Positions 1 through 56,960 of a stretch of DNA of 64,000 bases are shown piece by piece. Each line of letters starts with the position of its first letter. Within the stretch, counting starts at the first letter, position 1. This DNA is from Tubulanus polymorphus (Eukaryota > Animalia > Nemertea). Made by a program: the position numbers and the translations under genes. The DNA lies in NCBI RefSeq assembly GCF_964204645.1, contig NC_134025.1, forward strand, positions 18,141,101 through 18,205,100, written 5' to 3'. Under the pieces are notes generated by a model. It worked only from the letters and a program-made list of their open reading frames with translations, searched no databases and had not been told where the DNA came from.

Positions 1-1320
1 GCTAAAGGTGTTAATGGACTGAATATAGCTAAAAATGTTATCACCGAACTAATTGTAACTGAACCACTAATAATAAAATAATATATAATTTTACTTTTTA
101 TGTGGGGGGGGGGCATACTATATTCACTTCGTCGTTCGTCCGTCTGTCCGTCCGTCTGTCCGCAGTGGTTTCCGTGCCCTAGCACCCAAACCCTTTGACA
201 AATTTTCCTGAAATTTAACAACTGTGTTGTACTAGATGAGGTTAATAACTGATTAGATCCTTTTGGATCCTGTAGGTCCAAGATCAAGGTCACAGGAAGT
301 CATTTTGTAAATTTCATTTCCGGGCTCAAACTCATCAACGGTTTAAGATAATAGGTGAAATTTTATGGATAAGTTATCCTAGAGACTGTGGGTAACTGAT
401 TAGATTTGGGTCCCGTAGGTCCAAGGTCAAGGTCACAGGAAGCCATTTCGTAAATTTAATTTCCGGGCTCTAACTCATAAACGATTTGAGATAACTCAAT
501 GAAATTCTAGGGATGGGTTATCCCAGGGACCGTGGGCAACTGATTAGATTTTGGAACCTGTAGGTCAAAGGTCAAGGTCACCAGGAGCTGTTTTGTATTT
601 TTAATTTCCAGGCTCTATCTCATGAACGATTTAAGATAACTTGCTGAAATTTTATGGATGGGTTACCCTAGAGACCTTCAGTGACTGCTTAGATATCGGG
701 TCCTGTAGGTCTAAGGTCAAGGTCACCAGAAGTTATTTTGCTATTTTGATTTCCGGGCTATAACTCATAAATGGTTTAAGATAACTTGGTGAAATTTAAT
801 TGATGGATTGTCCTAGAGCAAATAGATAACTGATTAGATGTTGGGTCCTGTAGGTCAAAGGTCAAGGTCACCAGAAGTTGTTTACGTGTTCCTTGCGTAT
901 TTTCTTTGTTTCCTATCATGTACATTTTTTACACATTATTTTGCCCCCTTGGGACTTACTCTGAGCAGGCTATTGCATTCACTTTTCATTCGTTGTGTCT
1001 CCGTCCTCAAGGACTAAGGGTTACTGATCAATTTTTTTGGCCTATAGGTCCTAAGTCACTGGCACGGGGAGTCATTTTGTTCTTTTCGTTTGCTGCGGCT
1101 TCATATACAATTCAATATATCCTCAAGGTGTACTTTACTCTCAGGCGTTTCACCTGATGTGGGGGCATCAGTCGTCTTCAGCGACATTCTAGTTAAATAT
1201 TTTTTCTTTTTAATTTTCAAATCATTTTCAAATTCTAATATTTTTTTCTAAATATATTTTTGATTTAGTTTTATTTATATCATGAGGTATAATATTAACA
1301 CTTTCAATTTTATCTTCCAT
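1..1320 (-). pseudogene. Polinton small two-TM membrane ORF (MDDKV family), split by the HINE
   Basis: 1195-1320 encodes MEDKIESVNIIPHDINKTK...KKKY and 1-93 encodes SKIIYYFIISGSVTISSVITFLAIFSPLTPLA, both matching ORF 36984. Confidence 0.85.
94..1194 (+). mobile_element. Non-autonomous HINE/Helentron-type (DINE-1-like) element with internal ~145-bp tandem array
   Basis: 5' TTTTTATG..GGGGGCAT, then a GTCC/GTCT microsatellite (135-162), then ~5 units containing GTAGGTC-AAGGTCAAGGTCAC at 272, 415, 560, 705, 850. The 3' end has GGGGGCAT, a short hairpin GTCG..CGAC and CTAGTT. Inserted in a T run with no target duplication. Confidence 0.75.
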
Positions 1321-1339
1321 TTATATTATGAAAAAATTA

Positions 1340-1761
1340 CTAATAAGTAAATTTATATGCTACAAATATAACAATAATTGTTCCACCTAAAATCCAAATT
1401 ATTTCATATTGTTGTTGTTCTTTACTTGGGGTATAATAATCTGATAATTTAGGTTTGTATAGATGTAATTTTCTTTATTGGTTACCGCGTTATATAAACT
1501 CATTGCATCATCAACTGATTGAAAATCTCTATGTGAAATCTTCTGATCATATAATTCCTTGTTAATATAATCCATATAGTTTTGTCTCTTTTCTCTATAT
1601 TCTTCTGCAGCTATATTGTATTTCTCTAATGCTAAGTTATGTCTTTTTTGTTCTGATAATGATCCATTTTTATCAATATGCTTAAATAAATATCCGCCAC
1701 CAGTAAATGCTAAAGCGTTAACAATTGCCGATCCTATAATAGTTATAACTGCAGAAGCCAT
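1340..1761 (-). pseudogene. Polinton conserved ORF (MASAVITIIG family; hydrophobic N- and C-termini, coiled middle)
   Basis: ORF 1399-1761 with a frameshift near 1460; homologous copies at 36542 and 51165. Confidence 0.8.
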
Positions 1762-2019
1762 TTATTTAGTAAAAAAATTACGCGTCAATAGGAGGAATAT
1801 ATTTTTGTTTTTCTAAATAATCAATTGTTAAATTAGATAAAGTAACTGCTAATGTCAATTTTAAAATACCATTTATATCAAATCTATCAACATCAATACT
1901 TCCTATTTGAATACTTTTTTTAATACCATTGTATATATCCAACAGTTCCAACTGATTGAAATGCTCTATTATATAAACCAGTTATTAGCCACTTCTGATC
2001 CGCCACTTATTATGAAAAA

Positions 2020-2360
2020 AATTACTATCTTCAAAATTTTTAGTTATCTTAGTTATAATTATTTCAAAATTTATATCATCGTTCGTTTCATTTTTATATA
2101 TTAGTTATTATCTTTTTAATATCATCAATAATAAAATCTTCATCTAATTCATAAAATCTTAAAGAATTTCTAATTAAATCAGTAATCTTTTCTACACTAT
2201 AAGTTTCTTTATTTATTGTTGTTTCATAATCAATTGTTGTTTCATTAAAAAATGCAATGTTTTTAATATGTGTTATTACATCATTAATATCTAATTTCAT
2301 TTCTTTCTCACGTTTAAAATCAAATCCAAGACATATACTCGGTCCTACAGTTATATTCAT
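2020..2360 (-). pseudogene. Polinton conserved unknown ORF (MNITVGPSIC family)
   Basis: Near-identical to ORFs 35939 and 50561; truncated by a premature stop. Confidence 0.8.
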
Positions 2361-2384
2361 ATTTATATAGTGAAAAAAGTACCC

Positions 2385-3112
2385 TTTACATCTTATAACC
2401 AATTCATAAATTACAGGGAAGTTATTTTAATCAATTAAGTAACCATTAAGATTTCTTATTTCTGATTAAAAATTATTAAATTTTGAAATACAAGGCTTGA
2501 AAGCACATTCAGTTAAATTATAATTTATTTGCGATCCAAATTTTTTAACATTTTTAATGGTAAAATATTTATTAATATACTAGAATAACAAATTGTATCT
2601 TTAGTTGCTTCAAATGTCTTTATAGGGTCTATCAAATTACAATATATACAGAAATCTGTGTAAGGTATTAAGTATATTTGAATAAAGTTTATCTAGTGTA
2701 ATTCCTAACAGCTATAGGTTTTTTACTAAATATTGATATTTTTCACTATGAGATAACCTTATCTTTATTTTATCAGAACTATCACTTTTTAAAAATCTAA
2801 TGTTAAAACCAGCACCACTACCTAATTTGTGTCGGGCTTTTCTATTAATTTCTTGTGACAATGTATCTAAATTATATAACCCTGATTTTAGATATAGATG
2901 ATACCTTTTATTTTTTCCTGAATCATAAACAATCTATGATCAATAGTTTTATCCGATATACTATAAAAAGATTTACATAAACTTATATTTACTTATTTTA
3001 AATCTACACAATTTTTAAATTTTCTATCTAATTGTATTAGTAAATTATGTGATTTATAATTCAATGGTTTTCTAGATTCAACAAATATTCTATATTCTTT
3101 TAATTCAACCAT
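2385..3112 (-). pseudogene. Minor capsid (penton-like, single jelly-roll) protein
   Basis: MVELKEYRIFVESR...GLYNLDTLSQEIN...IYCNLID...LIDxNNFPVIYEL pattern typical of Polinton minor capsids; frameshifted. Confidence 0.7.
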
Positions 3113-3179: not shown

Positions 3180-4480
3180 AGTGGACGAGAAAATAGAACG
3201 TCAAATTTGTGGTGAACTTCAAAGAAAAGTAATATGGCTCGACATATGAAAAAAACATGATAGAAATTAAAAGCCCCCTAAAATAAACTGCCCAAATTGT
3301 AATAAATTATTCTCAAGAAATTAAATTGTTAAAAAACATTCAGAGAAGTGTAAATTTAATGACTCAACGGTTAATGTTGATAGTAACGAAAGTAATAATA
3401 ATTCTGTTGAAACTGAACCTGAAATGATTTGGAAAAGACCTTTTTTATTTTATGACAAGAATAATATAATAGTCAAGAATAATAATCATTTCTGTGAGCA
3501 TTGTCGAATAAAATATAGCCCTGAAAATATAGAAGATTGGGAGAATCATCAATTTAAAAAAGCACATTTAGATAAAATTTTTAATAAATTTGAAACAGAA
3601 TTTAATGAAAGAAAAAATAATATATTAGAAAAAAAAATATTAGAAAACGTTACCGGATAATAAAGAAACACTTGAAAAGTTAGAAAAACAATATAATGAA
3701 TTAGCAAGAAAAACATATTATTGTAAATATTGTACATAATAGAACAATAAAAAATAAAGAAAACGCAAGAAAATACCAAGAACTTAAATGAAGGCCAATT
3801 GCCAAGATTTGATAGAAAAAAATGCCCACAACGTATTTATGAGTACTTAAGACAAGAACATCCTGTGATATTTTGTAATGAATGTGGTTATGAAAGAAAT
3901 TTATGGGGTGATGAAAAAACTAGAGATTTTCTTATAGAACCAAAATTTAAATATCTAGATGAAATTTTAAAATATTTTCTATGGAAGATCATACACCAGA
4001 ATATAAGCAATGGCTTGTAAAAATAGAAATAATAGAAAATAAAAATGGTGAAATAACTAAGAAAGATATAATTAAAAAAATTATTCCGTCAACATGTTAC
4101 ACACACAAAAAAAGAAAATGTATTTATATCTATTATTTAACGATTATTATTAAAAACCTAAATCAACAAAAGAAGATATGGAAAATATAAAAGAAACATT
4201 CACAAACATATTAAGATATTATGTGGATAATAAAATAACAGATTCAATTAATTATGAATTCTTTTTAAATAAGATTGTAAATTTTTTAAACATCGATATT
4301 ATAATTCCATTTGATGAATTAACAAATAAAAAGAAACAAAGAGAGCGAGATGAAATGTGGAAAAGCATAGAATTTCATTAAATGGGAAAAATGAAATGGA
4401 AAAACCTAAAGAAATTATAGAAAAACTATTGGATGAAAATGAAGAAACCAATAGTGATTTCGAGTACGATGATGTTGATT
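3180..4480 (+). pseudogene. Degraded zinc-finger-containing accessory ORF(s) of copy P1
   Basis: CxxC...H motifs (CPNC, FCEHC...H...H, FCNEC) in broken ORFs at 3424, 3799, 3981 and 4178. Confidence 0.5.
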
Positions 4481-4487
4481 TCATGTT

Positions 4488-7400
4488 TTAATAACCATAA
4501 GGTAATGTTTTTATTCCATCATCCAAAATATATCTTTTATCGTCGAATGGATTTAAGCTAGTTTTTTTTTCAAATTCATTAATGTACATCTCGTGATCTT
4601 CTGATCTTAAACAATTCATTTTATGTTTCATTACAATTGAGTTATATAAACACTTTATATAATCTTGAAATTCTATATGTTTATCAACCACATGCTTTGT
4701 TATTCCTTTTAACTGTTTAGCTTCATGTTCTATAACTACACATTTTACTTCTTATCCCAACAAATTCAATCATTTCATCACCCCCTAATTCATCTTTAAA
4801 TTTACCAGGAATTTTCTATATTATCATTGCTAAATAAGTCATGATCTTTTGGATAATTGCTAAAGTCAAAATGATGTTTTAATGTTTTTAAGTCTTTTGT
4901 TATGTCATTTGTCTTGATTTTTAGTATGTAACTGTCGGTATTGAAGCAAATTAATGGAAACCCACAATTAAATGTACCATCTTCAGTTGTTAAATCATAT
5001 ACATAATCTGATGGGTTATATATTTCAAATAAATCTGTAACTTCTTCAGTTAAATCTTTTTCTGTGTGGCTTAAATTAAAGCAATTTGGTTTAGATTTAA
5101 TCAACCCAATATTCATATTAAAACCTAATGAATTGCGTAATATATTCAATCCTGATATAGCAACTTTTCTTTTCTGAGCTAAAGGTATAATTTTGTCTCC
5201 TGCAAATCACCATCTGCAACAGAGAATCCAATGAAGAACCATTTTCTTAGATTATATTTTGCATTAAATACATAATCTGGAACTATCTTTTCTTTGGTTG
5301 AAGTATTAATTTTAACTATTGCATCAGTATGGAATTCATCATTATATTTAATTGCAAAATCTTTAGGATTGTTTACAGGTATTCTATAAACCGCTGTTGA
5401 TTTCATAGTATCTATGATTTTAAATGTTTTATGCACATGAACTTCTTCACAATATTTCTTTATTCTTTCCGATAATTTCAAATCTTGATTACATAAATAC
5501 CAACAATATTTAGATCCACTTACATAATTATACACTCCTGCTGAACCATCTCCCATAAAAAAATCCTCTGATAAAATATTCTTTTTCTTTCAATGTTTCA
5601 GGTTCTATGTTATAAATATTATCAATTACTTCATCAAATGACTTATGATTCATTCTTGGATAAAATCTTTTATGTAATAATTCATCAATTTTTAAATCAG
5701 TTGGATTATTTCATCACCATTTTGTTTAATAAAACTATGATCTTCAGTAACATCAACAAATCCTAATTTATTTCTAACTCTATAAATCTTCTTATTGGTT
5801 TTATGTCCAATTATATTCTTTAATTTTTTCCATCAATTTTTGTCCAAACATCCATCAATCCATTCATTTGTATTAATTCTTTTTCACCATATGAAATATG
5901 AAGTTCATTTTGTTTAGAAATTATTTCTGAAATTCTTCTAATTAACATTTGTTTATTATATTTTAATAATATTGGGGTGTCTGCTGTTACAGAATAAAAA
6001 TATAATATTTCATTATGCTTTTCCCCAAGAAGTGGTTGTAAAACATTATAATAATAATCGTACATTAATAATTTAGATATTTCTAAAACAGTCTAACCAA
6101 TGAATATAGGTTTATTAAATTTCATTGACGTACTTTTTATTTTTACTGCTGTTAAATAATCTTCAAATCTTTTATTTCCTAAGTGTCTAGGACTTGATTG
6201 TAAATGTCTCAATCGTTCAAAATTATTTACTAATTCAATATCATTTCTATTTCTAATATTTTCACATGATTTTCCAAAAAAACTATTATTCATTAATTTG
6301 AAGAAATCTTTTTCAAAATCTGTTTTAGATACAATATATCATATATATTTATATATATTATTATGTTATTATTATATTCATCATTTGCTATAAAATACCT
6401 ATCTCCCGTAACACCACTAATTCCACCTCTAATTGATTTTTTCAAATAATAAAACAATGTCTGTTTCTTTTAATAAATCTAATTCTACATTTGTATACCC
6501 TATTGCCAGGTTAAACCAGGACTTGAATAACAATAACAAGGATCAACATAAAAATGATTTAAATTAACTTCTCTAAATTTTTCAAATATATCAGTCAATA
6601 TCATAACATCTGATTTTAAGTATAAATCTACTAATTCACCATGATTTTTTATCTTAAAATGATTCCAAATATTTAATGTCTTATTAAAAACTCCATCTTT
6701 CACGTACTCCTCTTTTAATTGATCATAAAATTGTTCTTTTAATAATTCTGTTACATTAAAATCATCGTGTGTTTTATAAAATGAATTAGGAATTGCACCT
6801 TTAAATCTCAATAATTTTAAATCTTGTTCATTTGGATAATAATGTCGAGTTATTACAAAACCATTATCAACTAAACTTTTTGCTAAATTATCTAATGAAC
6901 TTGCTAAAAATCTATGAGAATCTAAAAATCTCAAACAACCAAATTGAAATGAAATGTAATTTTCAGATTTCTTAGCTAATAGTTTAAAATCATATTTTCT
7001 TACATTTAAAGAATTTATAGCATTATATTATTCTATTTCTTGATTAATTACGCCTAATTTTCCTGATAATTGTTTTATAAATAAGTGGGTATCATATCCT
7101 GATAAATTATGAAATAATATTGGTACGAAATCTAGTTTTTTAGCTTGTATATAACAATCTTCATGAGCAGCTCCGCGATATTTTGAATTTAAATGATCAT
7201 GATCTTTAACTTTTTCACCAAATAGATAAAAACGTTTTTCACAATAACAACAATGAGTTGCATAATTAAAATCAATTTCATCTTCTTTTGTCATTACTAT
7301 TCTTTTATTTTGTTTAATAATTGTGCAAAATCACTTTCTAGTTCAATTATTTTATTGCAAAATTTACTACATCTTCACCTCTAAAAGAAATATATTGACT

Positions 7401-9103
7401 TTCATATAATTCGGGCTAATTTGATTTTATATAAATTGCATAAGCAGCAGCTCTTTGATGAACTTTTTTAATTGTATTTATGATTGGTGGGTCTTGAATT
7501 ATGTCTTCATTTAGTTCATTTCCTTTAGCCATTGATTTTATAAATTACTTTTTGTTATACATTTCTTTTCTATCTTGATCAGTTAATTCTTTATTCAACG
7601 ATTCAAAATCCCCATAAATTACAAATGGCACTATATTTTTAAATCTATGATTAGTAAATTTCAATTTATAATCTTTTGTTGTTGGCATTATTAATTTGCA
7701 AAAATCTTTCATTATCACATAATTCTTTATGTTTTAGTTATGCATTTCCAGTTCTAAATTTAGAAAAACATTTTCTACATAGATACATTTTATTATGGTG
7801 ATCACTTTCTGTTCTAAAGAATAAATCTATCTATTTTAACCCCATCTAATGTTCATTTTCATCTTTTTTTGTAATATAAAAAATCTATAACATTTTCATC
7901 ATCATAATATTCTGTTAGATATAAAGCTTCTAATGTATAATCTTTAATATTTTCACCTTTTGTCTCTGGTAATTGCATTAATTCGAATACATTCGTTTTT
8001 AAATTATTAACTTTTTCTATTTCAGGAATTATCTTAAAAATTACTGGATATTGATCAAATTTATATAATGTTTCATATTTCCGATAATCTGTTATTCTAT
8101 AAACATGTTTTCTGTTGGATGTAAACAACTATTAATTGACCATAGAAAACATTTATTATCTTAATTTTGAACATTTATAACTGCTTTTGTTGTAAATGGT
8201 TATTTAATACCAGATGATGCTTTAATATCCTTTTCTGTTGTAAAGTTTGAGTCATTTTTAAACATTGTATTACTTTTTGATGCTTTAGTCCTTTTTGTAT
8301 TATAAATATTGAAATCTAAAAATATAATTTCATTCAAAGTTAAACCAGAACCCTCAAAATATCTTTCCTCAATATGACGTTTAAATTACTTAAATATTTT
8401 TTTCTAATTTCTCTTTTATTTGTGTTTTTGAAATTATTTCTTCAGAATGTGTTTGAATATTATACTTCATTTTTCTTCTGATTTTATAAAACTAACTTAC
8501 TTTTCCAGCAATACTAATTTTTGGGTATTCAACATCTGTTACATTATTACTTTATTATTTTTTCCATTACTTCAATATATTTACTATAATCTTCTATTGT
8601 TGTACCTTTAAAAAATCTAAATATAATAGCTGCAGGACCAATTTTACTACGTAATGTTTTTAAAATTTCAATTGTATCTTTTATTTCTAGTGAATCAATA
8701 TAATTTCTAACATTTTCCATGTAAGGTTTATTTGAAATGAATTTAGTTTTTGAAGCTGGTATTTTTACTTGTTGAGGTTTATCATCAAAATATTCTGTTC
8801 CTAAAATATTTTCATTTAAATTTTGTTTGTGTTTTTGTGATTCGAGATGTCTTTTATAATCCCTTTTACTATAAATTCATTACAAACTTCACATTTTATT
8901 TCGTCTTTTTTCACATCATTTAATCGTATTTTTTTTTCATTTGAATTTTCTGGTGTCTCAAAATCTACAACATTTTTTTATGATTTGCAGTTTTTTCATG
9001 TCGAGATTTTTTGAGATTTATCGATGAATTTTTTACAATGTGTACAATAATATTGATTTTTATTAACATCTTTTTTTTCTGTCTGGAACTCACTGTCTCT
9101 CAT
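4488..9103 (-). pseudogene. polB: Protein-primed family B DNA polymerase (Polinton type), intein-containing, with N-terminal zinc fingers and an endonuclease VII-like motif
   Basis: Motifs CCYC..VKDHDHLNSKYRGAAH, FHNLSGYD, RFLDS, YLKSDV, SIRGG, KLMNNSFFGK, YF.|TDS, LNPFDDKRY. ATG at 9103 lies in a TAAATG context. Many frameshifts, and motif A (DANNLYG) is deleted at ~6330-6380. Confidence 0.93.
4940..5993 (-). other. Intein (class 1, Ser1...Asn/+1 Thr) with LAGLIDADG homing endonuclease, inside PolB
   Basis: Block A SVTADTPILL; block B GFVDVTEDHSFI; endonuclease blocks FIRGFFMGDGS and FFIGFSVADGD; blocks F/G YVYDLTTEDGTFNCGFPLICFN followed by TDS. Absent from the sister PolB (ILYFD|TDSYILKIK at 56452-56490). 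Confidence 0.92.
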
Positions 9104-9247
9104 TTATCAGGGGGAAAAATTACTTGTGGTGATGAGTGATGTGCCGACCTCTCGACCTCTGGCCTGAAACCCTCATTTTCCAATTACTCATTTGTATTGT
9201 AGCCAACCATGTGGACGGTGTATTATATAAACAATTAAGCTCTTTAC

Positions 9248-9612
9248 CGTCAAAATCTGCGTCTTTCATTATATCATCTAGCTCTGAATCGGTTGGGTTC
9301 ATTCCAATTCCCCTCATAACTGTTGAGAGTTCATTTTTATCTATGTGATCATCACCATTAAGATCAAACAAATTGAACGTGTCTCTTATTTCTGCAATAG
9401 ACAATATTTACGTATAATTAAGGTTTTCTATATACAATAATGGAGGAGATCCCGAATTGTTAATCTATTCAAATCTAAACACTACCTTGCAATTCTTCTT
9501 CCGTAAATCCGTCAGCATTGTTTTTAGCCAAATTTTCAGTCGTCTAGAATATAAAGTGGAGAGTGGAAAAAGTGATCCATTAGTAAGATTAATTCACAAA
9601 ACCGCTTACCAT
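9248..9612 (-). CDS. Calmodulin-like EF-hand host gene, exons 1-3 (9610-9612, 9486-9543, 9248-9391); 3' exons not seen
   Basis: GT-AG introns after the ATG (phase 0), after ELQ-E (phase 1) and after DADFD-G (phase 1), with a 144-nt exon 3: the classic calmodulin intron pattern. Protein: MTTENLAKNNADGFTEEELQEIRDTFNLFDLNGDDHIDKNELSTVMRGIGMNPTDSELDDIMKDADFDG. Confidence 0.85.
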
Positions 9613-10899: not shown

Positions 10900-11650
10900 A
10901 CGCACTCGGCAATAAATGGCACACGGTAATAGATCTGTTGACTGATCGATTAGGTCGTCCTCACAAGATCGTAGAAAATATTAATGAAACTTTAATAGAT
11001 ATCCAAAGACCAAATTATACGGTTGAATCTATGCGTATATTTGTGACACAATTGAATTGCACGTCCGCACTCTTGAATCGTTGAATACTCGATTTCTACG
11101 GAACTATTCTCGTTCCCATTTTGATAAAAATAGTAACCGGTAGAAATAAAGGAGATTTAGCAAAAACGCATGGGGATTGCGAATGGGATGGCAATGATCT
11201 TAGGACTTCTATTTTGGGAAGTCAAAATTATGGAATCATGCAACAATTGATCAGTTAGATGCAACGCCCGATTACGGTATTGTTATTAAATTGTAATATT
11301 CAGGCAACGATATTAACGGTAATAGGCAACAGAATAGAAATGCATATTCAATAAAATGTTCTTATTGTATGAACAGTCGTTATTAGATTTTTCCACTGCT
11401 CATATTATGTTTGACGATGGTTCACCACATACGTTCATTTCAAAGAGGCTTGTACAAACTTTAGATTCACGCCCCGTTGGGCAGGTAGACCTGAATATTG
11501 CAATATTTGGTCCAAACGAACGTAAGAGTTTTGTCAGATTGTTAGTTATGTGTAAGGATCGCTCTACAATTGAGACTGATGCATTGGTTTTTTTCCAAAC
11601 ATAACAAACTCATTAAATTAAGGTACCGACTGACTTATCCAAATATCTCG
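10900..11650 (+). mobile_element. BEL/Pao LTR retrotransposon gag/protease remnant
   Basis: WHTVIDLLTDRLGRPHKIV (gag-like) and AHIMFDDGSPHTFISKRL (LLDxGSQxSFI aspartic-protease-like). Confidence 0.65.
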
Positions 11651-16555: not shown

Positions 16556-17400
16556 CATGTAATTAGCTGATAATGACGGTGTTGCTGAAAATAAAACCGT
16601 CGTCAATGTCTCAGGTCAGAGCTGGAACGTTCTTCAAGATGTTTTGACCAACACATCAATCAGCGTCATACCAATATCCGGTACGGTAACTAAGCGCGAT
16701 ATCGTTCGCGACGCGTCAAAAATCTACGATTCACTTGGATACTTGTCACCGATCATTATTAATGCAAGAATTCTTAACCAGGATTTATGGAAAGTACCGA
16801 ACTTAACTTGGGACGACCAAGTATCGCCGGAGATTTTCAAAAGATGGTTTGCGATCGCTGAGGATTTAGAATTTGCGTCACATTTTAGTTTCAATCGCAA
16901 ACTGTTCAGCGTTTCACCGATCGACGGCACGGAATATCAGCTTCATATCTTTTGTGATAGTAGAACGTCCAGTTATAGTTGTTCCGCTTATCTCTTCGTA
17001 AATGGCCAGACGTCATAGTGTATGGCTAAATCTCGCGTAGCGCCACTAAAGCAGATTTCAATACCTCGATTAGAGTTGTTGGCGGCAGTGATTGGGTCGC
17101 GCCTATCTCGGCATGTACGACAGATTCGGTGGATTCTTTGAACGATTGGTTGGTTTAGTGAAACTCAAAGAAAACGTTAAGGCTAGCGAAACTAGGGTTT
17201 ACCGAATTACAAACCGTAGTCACCGAAATAGAGCCCGCATTGAACGACCGTCCGATTACCGCCGTATTCAAGATCCGCAATGTCAGATCCGCAACCGTTA
17301 ACGCCATCGCAATTATTTATGGGTCGTCAAATTAGCGGTATACCATACAAATTAGTTAATATCGACGACTTACCCGATCCCGACTACATTCAACATTCAG
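16556..17400 (+). mobile_element. BEL/Pao pol remnant (RNase H region and integrase C-terminus)
   Basis: VTKRDIVRDASKIYDSLGYLSP, LHIFCDS, MAKSRVAPLKQISIPRLELLAA, GGFFERLVGLVK, PLTPSQL. Confidence 0.88.
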
Positions 17401-19806: not shown

Positions 19807-22484
19807 TTGTCATTTATCAGTTGTATAAAGATTTGATTTCAATGGGATTTGAAGCTTATTTTAAAGAAAATTTAAACTAATTTGAATTACTCAAATTCAA
19901 GTCACGTTTTGCGTATTTTTGGTTTTGTGATCTCGTGTATATGAAAACGCTTATATGAAGAATATATATATAGTACGCTAATGCAATGATTTGTAACTAG
20001 TTAACAAGACCCTTCAACTTATCGGTCATCAATAATGTTAGGTGTATTCAGAATTTGGGTGTGGTTCCTATTCTGCTGGAAAACTAGTAGCGCTTTAGGG
20101 GTAAATGAATACGTTCGAATCTATCAATAGATCGTTAAAATGATGTCTTATAGCTCGATTGTGGGTTTGAATTTTCACGTTAGGTGTACATACGCATATA
20201 CGTTAGAAAAGCTCCATGGCTTCTATTTCTAATCTTTATGATAGTCTATCTTTCAAAGATAAACCGATGAAGAAAGCTGCGTGCCGTACTTAAACCGAAT
20301 ACTAGAAAATGCTTTTGGTGAATTTCGGTAACATGCGATTTCAATAATCTTAAAATATAATAACGTAAAAACTCCCGGATGGAGCGCAAAACATATGAGT
20401 GGCTTAGATGCATTTCGATAAAGTACAGGTTCAACCACAGTGTGTCTTTCTATGAATATATTGAGTGATTCTTATTGATCCATCTTTATAAAGGGCGTGT
20501 TTCTTGAATGTACATGGATATGAATGTGTGCTATAGATATTCGACGTCGCTCAAAACACTGGTATACGGTATGTCTATGAAACAAAACCGATGACCAGAA
20601 CAAACTACACGTTATATATCATACACATGTTTTTTCATTCGTAGGGAACTCCCGTAATTTTTTTTGAATAGTTGAGAAACGGCGTTGTGTCGGAATGGAT
20701 CATCGTGAGAGGCCTGTAAAGGATACTATATTGACACTTGAAGAAAACCGCATTTCCGTGATAAAAAGATTAAGAAAATGGTTTTGCGAACTTAATGTAT
20801 CAATTGATTATCCAGAAAAAAATACATGTGCATGTATAATGAAGTTCTTTTCATTCGAGCAATTCATTCGAATTGCCTTTTGTAAATAAGCATGTTAAAA
20901 GGCCCGTGCGATTGAGAAAGTGAGTGACGGATTAATGAATGTTGTTAATAAGTATCCGAAACTGTGTTTCACAATGCATAATGTGAAATAAATAAGAAAA
21001 GCAAGAAATTGAATGAATATGAAATTGATTTGAATTGATAAGCACTGCAAACTGTAATGTTTTTACGAATTAACTATTGAAAACAGCAAACCGTTCTTAC
21101 GAAATTGTGACCTAATCTAATGAAATATTGCACTCACCATTTTCATTGGTTAAAGTCTAAATCACCGTGGCTAGAAGAAAAGTCCACTGTTACGCTGTGT
21201 ATTTCCGATTCAGAAATACCAAACTTGTGATGTACAACGTTAACACTGATGTCGTAATGTCAGGAACGTGATGATTGCCTGAAACGCTTCTAAACAATCG
21301 ATACCAAGCGAAATAGATTCCGCACATGATATTATATATGCGGATGAAAATCAATGTGATGCCATCTAGAAATGCCTCCTCTGTCAAAATTTTAGGATTC
21401 AACTTTAGCTCAAATATCTTAATCCATAGATCATTCAACTGATCTGGTAGCATTCTGGATCGTTCAATTAGTGCTTATGCACGATAGGGAGGGAGGGGCT
21501 CAGCGAAAATGCAAGCAACTGCGTATGGGAGAGGGAGGGGATCTAAGCAGACGTACGCACCATCTGATGCCATTTTTCTGTTACAGGATTGAGAAAACGA
21601 TACAGTATTGGTTTACAATGCGCTATACTTCAATGAAACAAAGAAGCAATTTAATCACATCTTGTGTTGTTCTAACGATCACCGTGGTGGCCGCATCGGC
21701 CAAATTTTGAAAAAAATGATATGATTCTGGTCGTGTCCAGTTAGACTTCGGCTTGGCTTAACTATACCTTACACAGCCGTGTAGGTTCACGATTTGAAGT
21801 GATTCGGTTTATATCAAATACAATTTGAAGTGAATCGGCTCATATCAATACACCGCTCGGTGCACAGAGTTACTACGATATCGCCGTGATTCGTTCAGCT
21901 TATACAGGTCGAATCCCATTTATTGATCTGTATGATATGTGTGTTGCTTTGTTACTAATTGCATATTTAGGATTTAAACCACTTGATTTTATGTAAGCAA
22001 ATAAGGAAATAAATCACTAGTACATACGTTTATTCCCTGTTGACTCTATTTATTGTCTCGATTTTAATTCAATATTCTTTTTGCATCCATTGAACTCATC
22101 GTGTATATTTTAAATTCTACTACGTATTCGACGTGGTGGTGAAAAAGTCTAGAGAAAAACATTTTAGTTTTAAAGAGAATAACTGCGGTCAACAATGCGT
22201 TAATATGTTGAATGATTAAATCCTTTGAGCTCGGAAACAATGGGGATTAATAAGATTAAAGGTTTTGTTAAATATAACAAAAAATACTGCCTTGCTATTG
22301 TCAGATTGAGTCAGGTGGAACTTGAATTTAGCCCACATGCTTAAGTTGTTAATCAAAATTACTGTTCACAATCATAAATCATTTATTTCCAATTTTTTCA
22401 TTAATAACATTAAAATGGACTTCGAGGGAAAAGGAAGGTTTGTTCTTTTGAGGAATATGACTGGAGGGATAATGATTGAGGGAT

Positions 22485-23197
22485 TTAGGCAGGAATACGC
22501 TCTCCAGCAGTCGCTCATGATTGTTGTTCCCGGCAGTATCCACTTTTCGATAATCGGTATCAGGGTATCGCTATCACGTTTATCGACACTGACCATAAAC
22601 ACATTCTTATTATTCCCTCTCTCAAAGCCCCCGAAAACCCATTGCCCATCGACGCATCGTCCTCGGTTGAATTTCCGTTTTCCGAACTTGCTTTCATCGA
22701 TTTCCACTACTTTTCCTGGTCCGCCTATGGCTTTACAATTGTCAAAAAACAACCAGTTCGCAAACTTCACGGAAAAAACTAGCCCAGTCGACAATAGTTT
22801 TGCTGGATAAGCCCATTTCAGTCTGTATAACGGTCTGCTGTACTCCGCGCGATAACCAATACGTTATTTCTAATATCTCTGCGATCGTTAAGTTAGATTT
22901 AGAAAACCAACTGTCGTCTCGAACCGACTTAAACCGTTGGTGTAACACACCATCAACACGTTTTTGGCAACTCCACCGCCATCCTTCACTCGCAGATTTT
23001 TTGCTGATGTCCAATGACAATTTCATTTCATCATTACAAACCGGACACTGACGTGAAGCTGCAATCAATTTACGATCCATTAACCAGTCAATAGTTCCAC
23101 GTCTTGTATTCATGATTGTTCCAATTAATTCTTTATAGGTGATGACTTTTTTCTTATCGTCTCTCTCATCAATCATGTTTATTGTTCCACTTCGCAA
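22485..23197 (-). mobile_element. Merlin (IS1595/ISXO2-like) DDE transposase pseudogene
   Basis: CPVC..WRWSC..SVRDDSWF zinc/HTH region; VVEIDESKFGKRKFNRGR...WVFGG...ILPGTTIMSDCWRAY. Frameshift at ~22770 and C-terminally truncated. Confidence 0.9.
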
Positions 23198-23741
23198 AGT
23201 GATCTAAAAATGAGCCTAGAGCCATACTCCATATTAGCCAATTTTTAATTCGACCGTTCATAACCTTTCATTTCGGCTCATTTCTATTGGCCAAACTTTG
23301 ATAACAAAGTGTTATGGAACAATGAACGGTAAACAGGTTAACCGCAAACAAATGTGGAAATATGATTACCACTAGCACTTGTTCAGCTTCGTTGAACAAT
23401 GCATTGATTTAGATTTATTCATTGCTTCTATTCAATATACCGCGCATTAACACACTTGTTAGTGGGCTGCAGCCGTTAGTACAGGGCCTGTAATTATCAA
23501 AACCACTAGTTTTAAAATCCTAAGTAAATTACTAATTACCACTTTAATTTCGGTGTGACTATTTCCTGTCAAAGTTGCCTGTTTAGAATCTTGACCCAAG
23601 CAAATCGAATTAAGTACTAGCACTAAAACCCTAATTTGTCATTGTTTCTGCAATTGTTTACCGATTCGTTGATGCACGTGCATCGATTCCAAAAAGTATT
23701 AATGCTTAACTCTCGCAACGATATCCTCACACAAACTGATC

Positions 23742-40321: not shown

Positions 40322-41533
40322 ATGAGTGGGAGTTATATAAGTCCTTCTAAGAATCATAGAATATCTAATGCTATTAAAGCAGAAAGATCACATCATATAA
40401 TTACTCATAACCCTTCTAATATTAATACCGATGAAACTTTTTATGTTCCAAATAGTATTTATTTATCAGCCGATATAAAAGTAATCGGTAATAATAATAA
40501 TTATGTTGTTGATAATGTTGGAAGATATTTGATTAAAAAGTTAACAATAAAGATTGGTCCAGAAACAGTTTTCTCATTAGATGATTATAATTTATTTATG
40601 CATTATAAAGATTTATGGTTAACTAAAGAAAATAGAAATAATATGATATTTCAGGGTATTCAATCAGAAAACCAAAATAAATTAAGATCAGAAGCTAATA
40701 GCGCAATATTAACTAATGATGTAGATAAATTGATAAAAAGTATATATGGAAGCAAATATAAAATTCCATTAGACTTTGAATTGATAAATAATAATGCACC
40801 TTTATATAAATACGCAATTCAAGAAAACGTTATATTCGAAATTACATTTGCTCCTGTTAATGAAACTGTAATATCTAGCGTTAATAAAGATATGAGCTAT
40901 AAATTATCGAATATATGTTTAGAATATGATACAGTAACTGATGAAAATATTACAAGTATAATTCAAACTCAATACAATCAAGGATTTTCATTATTATATG
41001 ATTATATTGATAAATTTAAAACTGTAACTATTAATGCAAATGATGAAATTATTAATGAGAATATTAACTTCCCAAGAAGATCTATTAAAGGTATATTAAT
41101 ATTTTTTACCATTGCAACATATACTAATGGTGCAATGAATGTTGATAATTATTATAATCCTGAAATAACAAAAGTTGAAAAAACTATCGAAGGAATAGCA
41201 AATAAAATATTTTGCCAAGGAATGAGAATGATTGATCAATGGCCAGAAATTAGAAAACATTTTATGAATGAAAAAGTGAAATCATCTGAAAATTGTAATA
41301 TTAATCAAATTGATTATTATACCGGTAATAAATACGCATTATGGTTAGATTTTAGAACAACAGAGGATAATTCATTACGTGGTTCTGGAAAAAAACTACA
41401 GAACACTAAAGATGGAATACAATTATTCATGACAAAGAATAAAGGAATCAAAAATTTTAAAATGCACATTTATATTATATCTGACGCGCAATTAAATATT
41501 GTAAATTCTCAATTAAATAGTGTTATGTATTAA
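40322..41533 (+). CDS. Major capsid (hexon-like) protein, open frame with a 33-bp deletion
   Basis: 403-aa beta-rich protein (HIITHNPSNI, IPLDFEL, YKLSNICLEYD, KYALWLDFRT, DAQLNI) in a Polinton context. Confidence 0.82.
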   Translation: MSGSYISPSKNHRISNAIKAERSHHIITHNPSNINTDETFYVPNSIYLSADIKVIGNNNNYVVDNVGRYLIKKLTIKIGPETVFSLDDYNLFMHYKDLWLTKENRNNMIFQGIQSENQNKLRSEANSAILTNDVDKLIKSIYGSKYKIPLDFELINNNAPLYKYAIQENVIFEITFAPVNETVISSVNKDMSYKLSNICLEYDTVTDENITSIIQTQYNQGFSLLYDYIDKFKTVTINANDEIINENINFPRRSIKGILIFFTIATYTNGAMNVDNYYNPEITKVEKTIEGIANKIFCQGMRMIDQWPEIRKHFMNEKVKSSENCNINQIDYYTGNKYALWLDFRTTEDNSLRGSGKKLQNTKDGIQLFMTKNKGIKNFKMHIYIISDAQLNIVNSQLNSVMY

Positions 41534-44504: not shown

Positions 44505-44510
44505 CTTATT

Positions 44511-48313: not shown

Positions 48314-49002
48314 TGCGCTTATAGCGTAGAGCGGGGAATCCCTGCTGTACAGTGATACAATAGAGAACATGCGCGCTGTATTGTATTACCACTGACACGC
48401 GGTAATGTAAAATTGTCCCAATCATTACTAACTTGATAACTAACTTCATAACTAACGTGATGTAGTTAATTTCGCATCATAATAGCACCAGAGAACAAAC
48501 TTCGTAGGCCTAATTTTTAATACATTTTAATTACAATTTTAACATTCGATAATTAAATTGATAGGCAAAATTAATGCCAAAATTGTAGGCCTATATGTAA
48601 TTCTCACGGTCACTCAATGAATTTTTTTTTATGGTTAGTGTGCAATTAACACCATTACCAAGTTTTTTCTCAGTGTTTTTTTAATTTGAAGTAGTGATAG
48701 ACTTAAACCTTTTTTTTTCTACCTTATGTGACATTTTTTCTGGAGCGTGTGTATTATAATTTAAATCAAGTATAAGTGAATCTTGAAATTACAAGTATAT
48801 AGACACGATCACACGGATACGATTTTGCCCGGGTCAAATTGACACGGATCAGACTCGGACCTAATTTGGCCCGTGTTTAGAGAGCGCGCTAACATGCAAA
48901 CCATTTACTCGATAGTAAACAAAGCGAAGTGGGTCATTCATGGTACCAGTTCCAATTCAAACGCAATCATTTGTCTCGTGCTAAATCTGGCTCGGGCCTG
49001 GC

Positions 49003-52000
49003 ACATGAGAATTGTAACTTACAAGCTAAGAAAATTAACTTTGTACCAGTTATATTTCATAATCTATCAGGATATGATTCGCATCTATTTGTCAAACAGT
49101 TATGCCATGAAATAGAAGAAATTAATAATGAAATAGAAAGATTAAATTCAAATAGATCAAAAGATAAAATACCAACTTATAAATTTAAAATGTTAGCTAG
49201 AACATCTGAGAATTATATATCATTCCAATTTGGTTGCCTAAGATTTATAGATTCATATAGATTTTTAAATAGTTCATTAGATAACTTATCAAAATCATTA
49301 GTTGATGCTGAATTATTCATTTTATAAAAATCATAATGATTTTAACATAACTGAATTATTAAAAGAACAATTCTATGATGAATTAAAAAATGAATATGTT
49401 AAAGATGAAGTATATAATAGAACATTGAATATTTGGAATCATTTTGGAATGAAAAATCATGGGCAATTAGTAGATTTATATTTAAAATCAGATGTATTAT
49501 TATCAACTGATATATTTGAAAGATAAATATATTCGATATATTAAAGATAAAAACTGATAACATAACTGATGATTTAAAAACATTAAAACATCATTTTGAT
49601 TTCAGTCCTAAAGATCATGAATTGTTTAGCAATGATAATAAAAAAGTTCCAGGGAAGTTAAAGGATGAATTAGGTGGTGAAGAAATGATAGAGTTCATCG
49701 GTATTTGATCTAAAATGTATTCATATAAAACTAAAGAACACGAAGCTAAAAAGTTAAAAGGAATAACCAAAAGTGTAGTAGAAAAGAATATTCATTTCAA
49801 AGATTACATTAATTGTATATTCAATGAAGAAGTTAGAAAACATAAGATGAGATGTTTAAGATCTGAAGATCATGAAATGTTTATTGAAGAGATAGAGAAG
49901 ATAAGTTTAAACCCATTCGATGATAAAAGATATATTCTGGATGATGGTATACACGCAGTTGCTTATGGTTGCAGAGGGTTTATGATTTATATGAGAAATA
50001 AAGATAAATGGTTTCATATATTTTTAAAACCAGGATTATATAATTTAGAATCATTAGCGCAGGAAATTAATAGAAGAGCTCGGTTGAAAATCGGGGGTAC
50101 TTCTGTATTTGAAATTAAATTTAATAAAATTGATAGTACTAATAAAATAAGAATAAAGATTTCTAATGAACAACATAAATTTATGGTAAACAAACCACTA
50201 GCTAAAATGTTAGGAATTAAACCGCTTACAGTTACTGGAAACGCAGAAGGCAGCTCAAATATAATACCTTTTACACACTTTTATATTTATTGCAATTTAA
50301 TCGAGCCTACAAAAACTTTCGAAGCAACTAAAGAAACAATTTGTAGTTCTAGTATACTAAATATTTTACCGCTAAAAAATGTTTTGGAACTCAAATAAAT
50401 TATAATTTAACAGAATGTGATTTTAAACCGTGCATTCCTAAATTTAATAATTTTAAATTAGAAATAGGAAATCATAATGGACATTTAATTGATTTGAATA
50501 ACTTTCCTGTGATATATGAATTAGTTATAAGATGTAGAGAGTAATTTTTTCATTATATAAATGAATATAACTGTTGGACCGAGTATATGTTTTGGGTTTG
50601 ATTTTAAACGTGAGAAAAGAATGAAATTTAACATTAATGATGTAATTAAACATATCAAAAATATTGCATTTTCTAATGAAACAACATTTGAGTATGAAAA
50701 AACAATAGATAAAGAAACTTTAAATGTAGAAAAGATTACTAATTTAATTAGAGAATCTATAAGATTTTATGAATTAGATGAAGATTTTATCATTGATGAT
50801 ATTAAAAAAATAATAATTGAAATAAATACAAATGAAACTAGTAATGAAATAAATGTTGAAATAATTATAACTAAGTTAACTAAATATTTTGAAGATAGTA
50901 ATTTTTTTGATAAATAAATGAGTGATAATAAGTGGATAATAACTGGATTATGTAATGGCGCATTACTATCAGTGGGAACTGTTGGTCATTCAATGGTATT
51001 AAAACAAAGTATTCAAAATGGGAAGTGTTAATGTTGATAGATTTGATATAAATGATATTTTAAAATTAACGTTAGCAGTTACTTTATCTAATTTAACTAT
51101 TGATTATTTGGAAAAACAAAAATATATTCCTCCTATATAAATGCATAATTATTTTACTAAATAAATGGCTTCTGCAGTTATAACTATTATAGGATAGGCA
51201 ATTGTTAACGCTTTAGCATTTACTGGTGGTGGATATTTATTTAAGCATATTGATAAAAATAGTTCATTAACAGAACAAAAAAGACATAACTTAGCATTAG
51301 AGAAATACAATAAAGCAGCAGAAGAATATAGAGAAAAGAGACAAAATTATATGGATTATATTAACAAGGAATTATATAATCAGAAGATTTCACACAGAGA
51401 TTTTCAATCAGTTGATGATGCAATGAGTTTATATAACGCGGTAACAAATAAAGAAAAATTACATCTATACAAACCTAAATTATCAGATTATTATACCCCA
51501 AGTAATGAACAGGAGAAATATGAAATAATATGGATTTTAGGCGGAACTGTTATTGTTATATTTGTTGCTTATAAGTTTACTAATTAGTAATTTTTTTTGC
51601 TAAATAAATGGATGATAATATTGATATTATTCCTCATGATATAAATAAAACTAAATTAAAAATATATTTAGAAAAACAAATATTAGAATTTGAAAGTGAC
51701 TAAAAGATAAAAAAGAAAAAATATTTAAAAAGTAAAATTATATATTATTTGATTATAAGTGGTTCGGTTACAATTAGTTCTGTAATAACATTTCTAGCAA
51801 TATTCAGCCCATTAACACCTTTAGCTATATCAATTGGTGTATTAGGATTAAGTTCAAGTGTTTTAACTGGTATAAGTTCAAAATTAAATATAAAAAGTCA
51901 TAAAGAAAAAATTAAAACTAATATAAAAGAAATTAATAAATTAAAAAATACACTAGATTATATAATAAGTTTAAATGGGCATATAACAGTTGAAGAACAA

Positions 52001-53699: not shown

Positions 53700-54580
53700 A
53701 GTTCAAATATCCGAATAACCATAGAAGCGATAACATTAAAAACCTCATTTTCTAATGAGTAAATACAGTTTATTAACACGAACGTTTTCGGGATCATATC
53801 CCCTCATCAGGTGAAATACAAGTGAATCAAATGATTAAACTACAGGTTTATATACAACATAAGTTACAAAATTACAAGTGCTAAATTCTAAGCTAATTAC
53901 AAACCAAGTATTTAATTACAAACTAATTATTTGAATACATTTAGGATAAAGGATGAGCCGTTTTGAAATAATTGTTGATTTAAAGAGGGTCGTTGCGCTT
54001 TAATAAACAGGGCCTCCCTAATTTTTTTACAGTCGAGATCAGATGAACCTTTGTCTAGAATTTTGAATTTGTTGTTACTGAATTCCTGATCACAAGTGTG
54101 ACAAATTGCGAGATGTTGTCCAATCGCAGAAGTCTTTGATCTGTGTTCCTTAATCCTGATGGCCAAATGTCGTTTAGTTTTCCCAATATAGGAAGTGTTT
54201 ATATCACATAAACAATTAAATTTATATATGACTTTAGCCTTCAGCGATTTAGGGGTAGCACATTTCAAAGAGAAAAAATTCTTAATTTTGGTCGTAGTGA
54301 ATGCACATTTCAAGTTGATTTCAAAATTCCTTTTAAATAGATATTTTAATTTTCGGGCAAATAGGATTGACGGGTTACCAATATACGGTAATGAAATGAA
54401 TAGATCAATTCCATCTTCAACAGGTTTCGGTTGAGGTTCTGAGTTCTGTTTTGATTTCAAAAATCTATTAATACATTGATCGATGACATGAATAGGAAAC
54501 GCATTAGATTTAAACAGATTTTTCAAAAAACGCATTAGATTTAAACAGATTTTTCAAAAAATCTGTTTAAATCTAATGCG
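53700..54580 (-). mobile_element. 5'-truncated Penelope-like retroelement (GIY-YIG endonuclease)
   Basis: ORF 53927-54535: VIYKFNCLC..SYIGKTKRHLAIRIKEH..SAIGQH..REALFIKAQRPSLN; 3' hammerhead present. Confidence 0.9.
53777..53813 (-). ncRNA. Minimal type I hammerhead ribozyme
   Basis: CAC-CUGAUGA-G-GGGA(UAUGA)UCCC-GAAA-ACGU-UC-GUG. Confidence 0.85.
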
Positions 54581-54589
54581 ATTATCCAG

Positions 54590-56960
54590 AACTAATTGAA
54601 AGTGAATATTATCATTATATAAATGAAAATGTTATCAATCATTTTGTTACTTATTAATTGAATACGAAATAAAATTTAATGAAAAGTTTAATGAAAATAA
54701 AGAAATTATAATGACAGAAGAAGATAAAGAAGAATTTGAGTTTGCTGATAAATGTTTTTATTGTGAAAAGATATTTAATCTAAAAGATAAAAAAGTTAGA
54801 GACCATGATCGTTTGAATGGAAAGTTTAGAGGCGCAGCGCATAAGAATTGTAACTTACAAGCTAAAAAAATAAACTTTGTTCCAGTTATATTTCATAATT
54901 TATCAGGGTATGATGCTAATTTATTTATCAAACAGCTATGTCATAAAATAGAAGAATTCAATAATGAAATGGAAAGATTAAATTCAAATAGATCAAAAGA
55001 TAAAATACCAACTTATAAATTTAAAATGTTAGCTAAAACATCTGAGAATTATATATCTTTCCAATTTGGGTGTCTAAGATTTATAGATTCATATAGATTT
55101 TTAAGCAGTTCATTAGATAATTTATCAAAATCATTAGTTGATGATGAATTAAAGATATTAAAGCAACACTATCCAAATAATGATGATTTTCAATTAATGA
55201 GATATAAAGGCGCAATTCCATATTCATTTTTATAATTCACATAATGATTTATATACAACTGAATTATTAAAAGAACAATTCTATGATGAATTAAAAAATG
55301 AATATGTTAAAGATGAAGTTTATAATACAACATTGAATATTTGGAATAATTTCAAAATAAAAAATCATGGACAATTAGTAGATTTATATTTAAAATCAGA
55401 TGTATTATTATTAACTGATATATTCGAAAGGTTTAGAGATGTAAATCTAAAATATTTTAATATTGATCCTTGCAATTGTTATTCTAGTCCAGGTTTAACT
55501 TGGGATTGTGGTTTAAAATTTACAGATATAAAAATGGATTTGTTAACAAATATAGATCAATTATTATTATTTGAAAAATCTATAAGAGGAGGAGTTTCAT
55601 GTGTATTAGGCGATAGATATTTCAATGTAAATGATAACCCTGGATATAAGTTATTATATATAGATGCAAATAATTTATATGGTTGGGCAATGATGGAACC
55701 TCAACCTTATAGAGTATTTGGAATGACTGAAGTTTTACAACATGAAAATAATGATAAATTTGATTGGAAGAAAAGAATTCTAGATATTGCAGATGATTCA
55801 GACACTGGTTACTTTTTTGTGGTAGATTTAGAATATCCTGAAAACATTAAGTTTAAATCTAGAAATCTAGCATACTGTCCCGAACATAAAACTGTAACAC
55901 ATGAAGAATTATCAAGTTATCAAAAAAGAATTAAACCTGATAATCATATTCATACAGAAAAGTTAATGGTAACTCAAGAAGATAAATATAATTATGTAGT
56001 GCATTATAGAATGTTAAAATTCTATTTGAATCAAGGAATGGTTCTAAAAAAAAGTACATAGATATATTTCATTCAGTCAATCTAAATGGTTAGAAAAATA
56101 TATAGATTTTAACACCAAACAGAGAACTAAAGCTAAAACTGATTTTGAGAACGATTTTTTCAAACTAACGAATAATGCATTCTATGGTAAGACTTGTGAG
56201 AATATTAGAAATAGAAATGATATTGAGTTGGTGAGCAAAGGTAAAAGAATTAGACATTTACAAACATATCCTAAATTTATTGGTAACAGAATATTTGATG
56301 AAAATTTAGCTGCAGTTAAAATGAAAAGAACTTCTATGAAATTTAATAAACCAATTTATGTTGGAGCTACAGTTTTAGAAATATCAAAGTTACTAATGTA
56401 TAAATTCTATTATAACGTATTAAACCTCATTTTGGAGAAAAGCGCATAGAAATCTTATATTTTGATACCGATAGTTACATATTAAAGATTAAAACTAATA
56501 ACATAACAGATGATTTAAAAACATTAAAACATAATTTTGATTTCAGTAATTATCCAAAAGATCATGAATTGTGAACAATGATAATAAAAAGGTGCCTGGT
56601 AAATTCATTGGAATTCGATCTAAAATGTATAGTTATAGAACTAAAGAACATGAAGCTAAAAAGTTAAAATGTATAACAAAAAGTGTAGTAGAAAAGAATA
56701 TTCATTTTAAAGATTACATCAATTGTATATTCAATGAAGAAGTTAGAAAACATAAGATGAAATGTTTACGATCTGAAGATCACGAGATGTTTATTGAAGA
56801 GATAGAGAAGATAAGTTTAAACCCATTCGATGATAAAAGATATATTCTGGATGATGGTATACACGCAGTTGCTTATGGTTGCAATTTAGAAGAATACTTA
56901 AAATTTAAAAGAGAAGAAGAGAAAGAAAAGGAAATAATGAACAGGATTCTAAAATGTTAA
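54590..56960 (+). pseudogene. polB: Protein-primed PolB, intein-free allele (copy P7)
   Basis: VRDHD, FHNLSGYD, SIRGG, YIDANNLYGWAM, KLTNNAFYGK, YFDTDS (uninterrupted), LNPFDDKRY; frameshifts. Confidence 0.93.

Follow-up and report, generated by a model that had tools for sequence, protein, structure and literature searches.

A decayed Pol-c intein in the protein-primed DNA polymerase of a Polinton and its intact relatives

An insert of 1054 bp in a 64,000-nucleotide stretch of DNA (hereafter the window, the whole stretch that was analysed) raises the question of whether a protein-splicing element can settle in the polymerase gene of a Polinton and, if so, where it came from and whether its kind still moves. 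The insert (positions 4940..5993, minus strand) interrupts a broken copy, copy A, of the gene for a protein-primed family B DNA polymerase (pPolB), and a preliminary description of the locus had proposed that an intein of giant-virus type homed across polymerase classes into this gene and was carried into an animal genome by the Polinton integrase. Metazoan genomes are described in PMC5784728 as lacking inteins, and in the literature searched, which comprised listings and the beginnings of abstracts, with supplements, subscription journals and Repbase reports outside it, we found no complete intein in a Polinton or in a protein-primed polymerase; the preliminary description likewise mentioned none from Polintons or animal nuclear DNA. 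We confirmed that the insert is a Pol-c intein with a LAGLIDADG domain in the protein-primed PolB of a Polinton. Our preferred reading, to which we assign a probability of about 0.85, is that it is a dead copy from a clade of Polinton pPolB inteins whose intact members are predicted to splice out and probably home to motif C of empty copies.

The position of the insert can be read precisely. On the minus strand it starts at 5993 (SVTADTPILL) and ends at 4940 (CGFPLICFN), after which the C-extein begins with TDSYILKIK (4491..4939, minus strand; located from the sequence and by tblastn). The N-extein (5994..9061, minus strand), which has many stops and frame breaks, was traced by tblastn with residues 6-1186 of the pPolB P0001, and one piece of it matches PF03175 (E 4e-4). 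An empty-site control lies in the same window, as a paralogous pPolB (copy D; 54580..56957, plus strand; PF03175 E 8e-7) reads EILYFD/TDSYIL at 56466/56467, and when the sequences on either side of the insert are matched to it by BLASTN, the two matches meet at exactly this point, indicating precise insertion. Copy A and this intein-free paralogue are identical at 32 of the 36 bases around the site, and the last N-extein residue is substituted in copy A. A third pPolB copy (48962..49972, plus strand; BLASTN and tblastn) carries a deletion that removes the site, and it is uninformative on the filled or empty state. The insert lies in PolB motif C, YxD/TDS, and is most similar to inteins of that site, the pol-c allele described for Mimivirus and archaea (PMC549080); the earlier attribution of YGD/TDS to archaeal and Mimivirus-like PolBs agrees with that paper.

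Five frame pieces make up the decayed intein, which comprised a Hint domain and a dodecapeptide LAGLIDADG endonuclease, and the number of breaks is therefore four rather than the about three frameshifts first estimated; the exact placement at motif C and the motifs listed in the preliminary description (block B VDVTEDH, the LAGLIDADG-like xFFMGDGS and GFSVADGD, and in addition YVYDL) were borne out. We aligned the pieces to a hidden Markov model (HMM) built only from 225 Pol-c inteins of RNA-primed, non-Polinton PolBs. Piece 1 (5841..5993), from block A (Ser1, SVTADTP) to DVWT, covers model positions 1-59 (E 1e-5) and is 54% identical to the intein of an intact relative, P0011; piece 2 (5707..5832) contains block B, VDVTEDH, with Thr and His kept (positions 62-103, E 2e-16); piece 3 (5561..5698) is the linker into the first LAGLIDADG helix (positions 105-151, E 4e-5); piece 4 (5209..5556) is the endonuclease core from MGDG to ADGD with both acidic residues kept (positions 147-261, E 7e-32); and piece 5 (4940..5191) holds blocks F and G (YVYDL to GFPLICFN), with the terminal Asn before the +1 Thr (positions 265-354, E 1e-15; 63% identical to P0011), all on the minus strand. 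Retained in the window copy are thus Ser1, the block B Thr and His, both endonuclease acidic residues, the block F Asp, the last Asn and the +1 Thr, which include the residue set of a class 1 intein (Ser or Cys at position 1, block B TxxH, block F Asp, terminal Asn, and Ser, Thr or Cys at +1). Judged by its sequence, this copy can neither splice nor home.

Submitted singly to Pfam, the five pieces gave no Hint or LAGLIDADG match, but the HMM ranked them 1-5 among 1789 stop-to-stop frames, in model order, with E-values of 7e-32 to 4e-5, and placed the next frame at 0.73; this ranking argues that the similarity is more than chance. The window intein also matches the intact P0011 intein with an E-value of 1e-86. 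We folded the latter with an 82-row alignment. The resulting model (score in the predicted local distance difference test, pLDDT, 94.8; predicted TM-score, pTM, 0.93) has a predicted Hint fold, seen for this intact relative only, and a LAGLIDADG domain with two motifs bearing the catalytic acidic residues and a predicted alpha-beta-beta-alpha-beta-beta-alpha fold. Its best matches in the PDB are TliVMA, PhoVMA, PI-PkoII, PI-PfuI and PI-SceI (E 2e-18 to 5e-11), its root-mean-square deviation from I-DmoI is 2.6-4.3, and in BFVD the named matches, which take ranks 2-6, come from the PolBs of a phycodnavirus, of pandoraviruses, of a marseillevirus and of Megavirus. A second intact relative, P0287, scores above the Pfam cut-offs for Intein_splicing, Hom_end and LAGLIDADG_3 and also matches TIGR01445.

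Relatives were sought with the empty paralogue (best 120 of 1978 matches) and with the P0011 intein (best 120 of 1302 matches). P0011 is an open pPolB of 1693 amino acids (aa) whose motif C is likewise interrupted, by an insert of 354 aa (residues 1184-1537), and the matches to its intein contained four more pPolBs with intact motif C inteins, P0287, P0295, P0298 and P0299. The insert is in frame in all five, as opposed to broken in the window; its length is 337-354 aa across these five clusters, which span both pPolB classes, and both endonuclease acidic residues are kept in every one. A metagenomic locus, L086, has a broken intein in a Polinton-type pPolB, and P0072, P0081, P0084 and P0121 are partial. 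Every Polinton intein that reaches its end finishes GFPLIxxN, and the residue at -2 varies among the hosts (YFx, YMD, YLD, YGD and xSD). When P0121 was used as a query against viral contigs there was no match, and P0152 against genome contigs gave one weak extein match only.

In a tree of 150 rows, the Polinton inteins (9 rows) form one clade with a Shimodaira-Hasegawa approximate likelihood-ratio test (SH-aLRT) value of 99; a 70% identity filter had reduced the 225 non-Polinton inteins to 141 for this tree, which also omits near-duplicates of P0287 and P0298. The window intein is sister to P0121 and P0011. The same clade was recovered as 7 of 43 rows under a mixture model (100/100) and with seven archaeal rows added, one archaeal mini-intein being left out (100/99). 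We regard it as confirmed, on these alignments and trees, that Polinton polymerases have a Pol-c intein clade of their own, dead in the window copy and intact elsewhere. The preliminary description had called for a search for intact copies and for a tree with viral and archaeal Pol-c inteins; intact relatives do exist, in five pPolB clusters, as part of a Polinton-wide clade with a signature of homing that it had missed, and the tree gives one Polinton clade on a polytomous backbone, compatible with a place inside or outside the Nucleocytoviricota.

Sequencing reads bear on whether the locus is real and how many copies exist. Four runs of the same species were mapped on 4450-6300; one of them, X5, is from a different study than X1-X3, and about 12% of its raw reads were used. 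Contigs from X1 bridge the 4940 junction, and contigs from X1, X2 and X3 bridge the 5993 junction, with at least 31 letters on each side. Raw X5 reads cover the whole insert, most of them 85-95% alike, and 22 X5 reads join the flanks without the insert, so that filled and empty alleles occur in the same species. The 4248 X5 reads placed fall into 26 at 99% identity or more, 527 at 95-99%, 2107 at 90-95% and 1588 below 90%, and depth ranges from 76 to 245 within the insert and from 247 to 495 beside it, from which we estimate tens to about 200 related copies for a genome of 0.2-2 Gb. For three of the four breaks, a length other than that of the window is seen in 68-93% of X5 reads, and most copies therefore lack these lesions; depth is lowest at the fourth. 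Coverage, at about 200-fold, and bridged ends together show a multicopy family and not an assembly chimera, the artefact against which the preliminary description had warned.

With regard to movement, several comparisons suggest that intact relatives still spread. When 34 exteins, picked by hand, are placed on a tree, the 9 filled rows require 8 changes of state, the same as with shuffled labels. P0295 is a member of the second pPolB class (PF03175, 110.9 bits), and its extein is 20-24% identical to those of the other six whereas its intein is 43-48% identical to theirs; in the recent pair P0298/P0299, the intein is 77% identical versus 82% for the extein. The P0287 cluster has 136 members, whose contigs reach 1 Mb, and contigs so much longer than a Polinton suggest that this family is integrated in a large genome. 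Of its 15 listed members, 7 are filled, 6 are empty and 2 are too short; relative to P0287, extein identity is 98.6-99.4% for the filled members and 94-98% for the five empty ones of full length. The differences of the empty alleles pile up at the site, with 7-8 of their 22-64 differences falling within residues -7..+8 where 0.3-0.9 would be expected (binomial P no greater than 4e-6 for each of the six); in P0405, 8 of 22 do so (expected 0.3, P 3e-10). Empty alleles also differ from each other there, their sites reading YFD/TDAM, YTD/CDSM and YGD/TDAM. Such a pile-up could stem from co-conversion with the intein, from selection for uncuttable empty sites or from both; simple precise loss would not produce it. 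In a sister subfamily, Cys is found at -5 in 3 of 3 filled alleles, as in P0287, versus 0 of 77 empty alleles of that lineage. We consider homing among Polintons, with intact relatives still spreading, to be likely on these sequence comparisons. Two observations stand beside this subject: many empty pPolBs of the P0287-related lineage (P0019-P0120) read YxD/CDS and not YxD/TDS, which might be target escape, and P0293, a type II topoisomerase, contains several inteins, two of them similar to the Pol-c family, which may reflect non-allelic spread.

As to origin, the best matches outside Polintons are 38-45% identical and lie in RNA-primed PolBs, and 221 of the 225 non-Polinton relatives sit at YGD/S. 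A DNA motif encoding GFPLIxxN/TD was found at 57 loci, 15 viral and 42 metagenomic, among which L086 alone is a Polinton-type pPolB; 13 of the 15 viral contigs are named as giant-virus metagenome-assembled genomes. Four of six motif carriers looked up are Imitervirales (IM_01, IM_07, IM_08), the other two not being listed (PMC8575486, supplement), and the C-terminal DNA motif had 0 matches in prokaryote genomes. Among archaeal genomes, 36 of 301 match, one of them closely: the archaeal PolB L096 (G233:C165), whose Pol-c intein of 328 aa matches at E 4.5e-57, the others being at 8.5e-15 or worse. The empty window site shares 9-15 of 18 central bases with each of 29 distinct flank sets, a similarity that makes a rare cross-class cut plausible; the same puzzle was noted for Mimivirus and archaea (PMC549080). 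A single transfer across polymerase classes is well supported, and a giant-virus donor is likely on present sampling. The earlier proposal thus stands insofar as a Pol-c LAGLIDADG intein in a Polinton pPolB has its nearest sampled non-Polinton kin in giant-virus RNA-primed PolBs; its direction of transfer does not follow from the trees, given an approximately unbiased (AU) test p of 0.49, a polytomy and relatives in T4-like phages, all taken up below. As a separate observation, P0196, P0242 and P0348 are T4-like phage DNA polymerases (phrog_262, E 1e-77 or better) with a Pol-c intein ending GxPLIVKN, and they fall in the same subclade as Imitervirales, which points to intein exchange between phages and giant viruses. 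Two further ideas were weighed: the YGD of P0011 as a co-converted giant-virus flank, dropped as the empty allele P0406 also reads YGD, and the GxPLIxxN ending as a pin of the donor to one Imitervirales clade, kept as a lead only, as the trees neither join nor reject the groups.

We envisage the following course of events. A pPolB-intein precursor would be translated and would splice by the class 1 route, with an acyl shift at Ser1 helped by the block B Thr and His, transfer to the +1 Thr and cyclisation of the Asn, which would restore YxDTDS. The endonuclease, as a monomer, would cut copies at the empty site, and when a filled copy served as template for the repair, the intein would be brought in together with some flanking sequence. 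The clade would have arisen by one transfer between the pool of RNA-primed viral PolBs, most likely those of a giant virus, and a Polinton in a common host cell, a step that would be possible because motif C is the one stretch common to both polymerase classes. Later the intein would have moved among Polinton lineages and reached this probably animal genome inside integrating Polintons, entry being through the integrase. The fullest version of this account, in which the lineage was captured from a co-infecting giant virus and homes among integrated Polintons in an animal germline while empty copies survive by escape changes at the target, we put at roughly even odds.

Several findings count against our reading or parts of it. 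The penultimate His is absent, being replaced by Phe in the window copy, Ser in P0011 and Lys in P0295; it is present in P0287, P0298 and P0299 and in 59 of 225 non-Polinton relatives (166 lack it), which indicates that this residue is not required in the Pol-c allele group. The intein is rare, with 4 filled among the 97 pPolBs reaching motif C within the best 120 pPolB matches. The -7..+8 interval was chosen after inspection of the data, and Cys at -5, which also occurs in three empty P0287-cluster alleles, loses some of its force. The archaeal-rooted tree (root 78/97) leaves the Polinton clade in a polytomy on the viral side, and in AU tests on 50 rows three alternatives survived: a Polinton clade that is sister to the whole set of viral PolB inteins (p 0.49), a grouping of it with the GxPLIxxN clade (p 0.39), and the exclusion of P0295 from the other Polinton inteins (p 0.23), so that the nesting of P0295 among them is not required.

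These points give room to other explanations. One is that the intein entered Polintons once, long ago, and has since been inherited vertically with many losses and without homing today. It would account for the single clade, for several between-lineage intein identities (43-51%) that track those of the exteins (41-45%), for an intein tree that roughly follows the extein groups for P0298/P0299 and P0287/L086, and it draws on the unrejected tree without P0295. We consider it improbable, in view of the excess of intein over extein identity in P0295, the coexistence of filled and empty alleles that are 94-98% identical and differ mostly around the site in excess of expectation, and the endonuclease acidic residues kept in all five intact members; endonuclease residues are not expected to persist long without homing in the intein life cycle. 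The donor, on the other hand, may have been something other than a giant virus, namely a phage or archaeal PolB, an unsampled pool, or, with the direction reversed, a Polinton that passed the intein to giant viruses. The polytomy and the AU result allow this, as do the T4-like phage polymerases in the same GxPLIxxN subclade and the close archaeal intein of L096 in one genome of 301, and it has some substance even if it is the unlikely option: the best non-Polinton matches include giant-virus loci, most of the motif carriers looked up are Imitervirales, and the remaining archaeal matches are far weaker. Polintons and giant viruses, moreover, live in the same eukaryotic host cells, and phages do not.

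Artefact and host identity can be weighed in the same way. To suppose an assembly chimera or a chance similarity, one could cite the single pieces without a Pfam match and piece 4, which as a query found no relative among viral contigs, PDB sequences or phage records and, in a word-indexed search among longer proteins, gave 222 candidates of which none scored; against the junction-bridging contigs, the HMM ranking and the intact homologues at the same site, this idea carries almost no weight. The host, finally, might be a protist or a co-assembled symbiont, Polintons being established as widespread in protists, in which case the animal part of our account would fail and the Polinton intein would stand. 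We see a slim chance of this and take the host genome to be very probably animal. The window contains a Pao peptidase A17 (16563-17015, plus strand; E 3e-24), an ISXO2/Merlin-type transposase (22375-23203, minus strand; Pfam), a Myb/SANT protein (25513-25923, plus strand; Pfam) and a calmodulin-like EF-hand gene (9247..9531, minus strand) of two exons with a 94-nt GT..AG intron (9485-9392) and a second donor at 9247, features that make an animal host likely, and open reading frames (ORFs) of 400 aa in the standard code are open. BEL/Pao elements are not known outside animals. They have been reported from metazoan genomes (PMC3118150).

Comparison with known systems places the Polinton inteins most closely beside those of viral polymerases. 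The intein of Chilo iridescent virus, an insect iridovirus, resides in ribonucleotide reductase. It resembles the present case as an intein in an animal virus, but it is of the glutamine type, in a non-integrating giant virus, and not in a germline (cited in PMC549080). The Pol-c inteins of giant-virus PolBs, such as Mimivirus APMV Pol, share the YGD/TDS site, the length (351 aa there, 337-354 aa in Polintons), the Ser...Asn/Thr junctions, the block B Thr and His and the dodecapeptide endonuclease, with 38-45% identity to the best sampled members (PMC549080); they differ in that their host is an RNA-primed PolB and not the protein-primed PolB of an integrating Polinton, and in that the Polinton inteins group in a clade apart. 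Archaeal Pol-c inteins are alike in site and fold, with sequence matches to PI-PkoII (E 2e-10, full intein) and the split intein NEQ068 of Nanoarchaeum (E 0.001), yet they are much more distant, except for L096, and belong to cellular replicative polymerases. Endogenised viral-like polymerases of Klebsormidium, Tetrabaena and a labyrinthulomycete likewise show an intein entering a eukaryotic nucleus within a viral polymerase gene (PMC10710043), but these are giant-virus-like polymerases in algae and protists, whereas here a multicopy Polinton pPolB, probably in an animal, coexists in filled and empty form. Polinton pPolBs can also contain HNH, VSR and endonuclease VII inserts (PMC10748475, PMC11161782); these, too, are domains derived from selfish nucleases, and PMC11161782 suggests that they stem from intein invasions; as far as these accounts go, no splicing domain is reported and the inserts lie elsewhere in the protein, whereas a complete Hint and LAGLIDADG unit in the catalytic motif would have to splice out.

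If the host is animal as we suppose, the Polinton clade breaks with both the stated absence of inteins from metazoans and their lack in protein-primed polymerases and Polintons. If the fullest account above were true as well, animal nuclear DNA would hold its first gene drive based on protein splicing, and the intein would be a molecular record of Polintons replicating in cells that giant viruses also occupy. Homing requires that donor and target DNA meet in one compartment, and an intein common to RNA-primed viral PolBs and Polinton pPolBs therefore also bears on the question of whether Polintons co-infect cells with giant viruses in the manner of virophages. Where a genome contains many Polinton copies, filled and empty, it offers a natural system for homing, co-conversion and target escape among paralogues, and the tools for protein splicing are extended by intact inteins of non-thermophile origin that use Thr at +1.

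The remainder of the window gives the context of copy A. Its protein-primed PolB identifies it as Polinton-derived, and an rve integrase and an A32-like ATPase are present in sister copies, not attached to copy A. Downstream of it lie family-conserved Polinton ORFs (1193..3085, minus strand) that are 84-86% identical to those following other copies, and the calmodulin-like gene, with its second donor at 9247, lies about 190 bp upstream of its pPolB start, with no Polinton terminus seen between. No termini or target-site duplication were found for copy A, nor any termini among the 25 longest of 230 inverted pairs in the window, the copies being fragmented and nested; an adenain-like protease had no Pfam match among the ORFs scanned, with no search aimed at it. 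A single Polinton family occupies 31073-46463, 48962-53687 and 54580-62218 with four or more decayed copies, nested and rearranged, whose mutual identity is 70-92%, and some of their capsid-module genes are still open. They encode a likely major capsid protein of the same family (40322..41533, plus strand), for which Pfam Capsid_N reaches E 0.16 only, look-alike clusters are viral, some with Capsid_N members, and a PDB sequence search was blank; an A32-like packaging ATPase (42878-43408, minus strand; Pox_A32 E 2e-9); an rve integrase with a chromodomain (43401-44111, minus strand; Chromo E 1e-4, rve_3 E 0.003); and second copies of ATPase and integrase (59083-60297, plus strand; tblastn). An endonuclease VII-like domain (PF02945) occurs in the same pPolB class, at 54627-55232 (plus strand) in the window and in P0287 and P0298, so that filled alleles hold two nuclease-type inserts. 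Elsewhere there is a weak retroviral protease match (11338-11601, plus strand; Pfam), and an ORF at 53927-54553 (minus strand), without Pfam support, resembles by eye what we take to be the C-terminal end of a Penelope-type element. A tandem satellite at 28544-30195 has a unit of roughly 72 bp and includes inverted copies.

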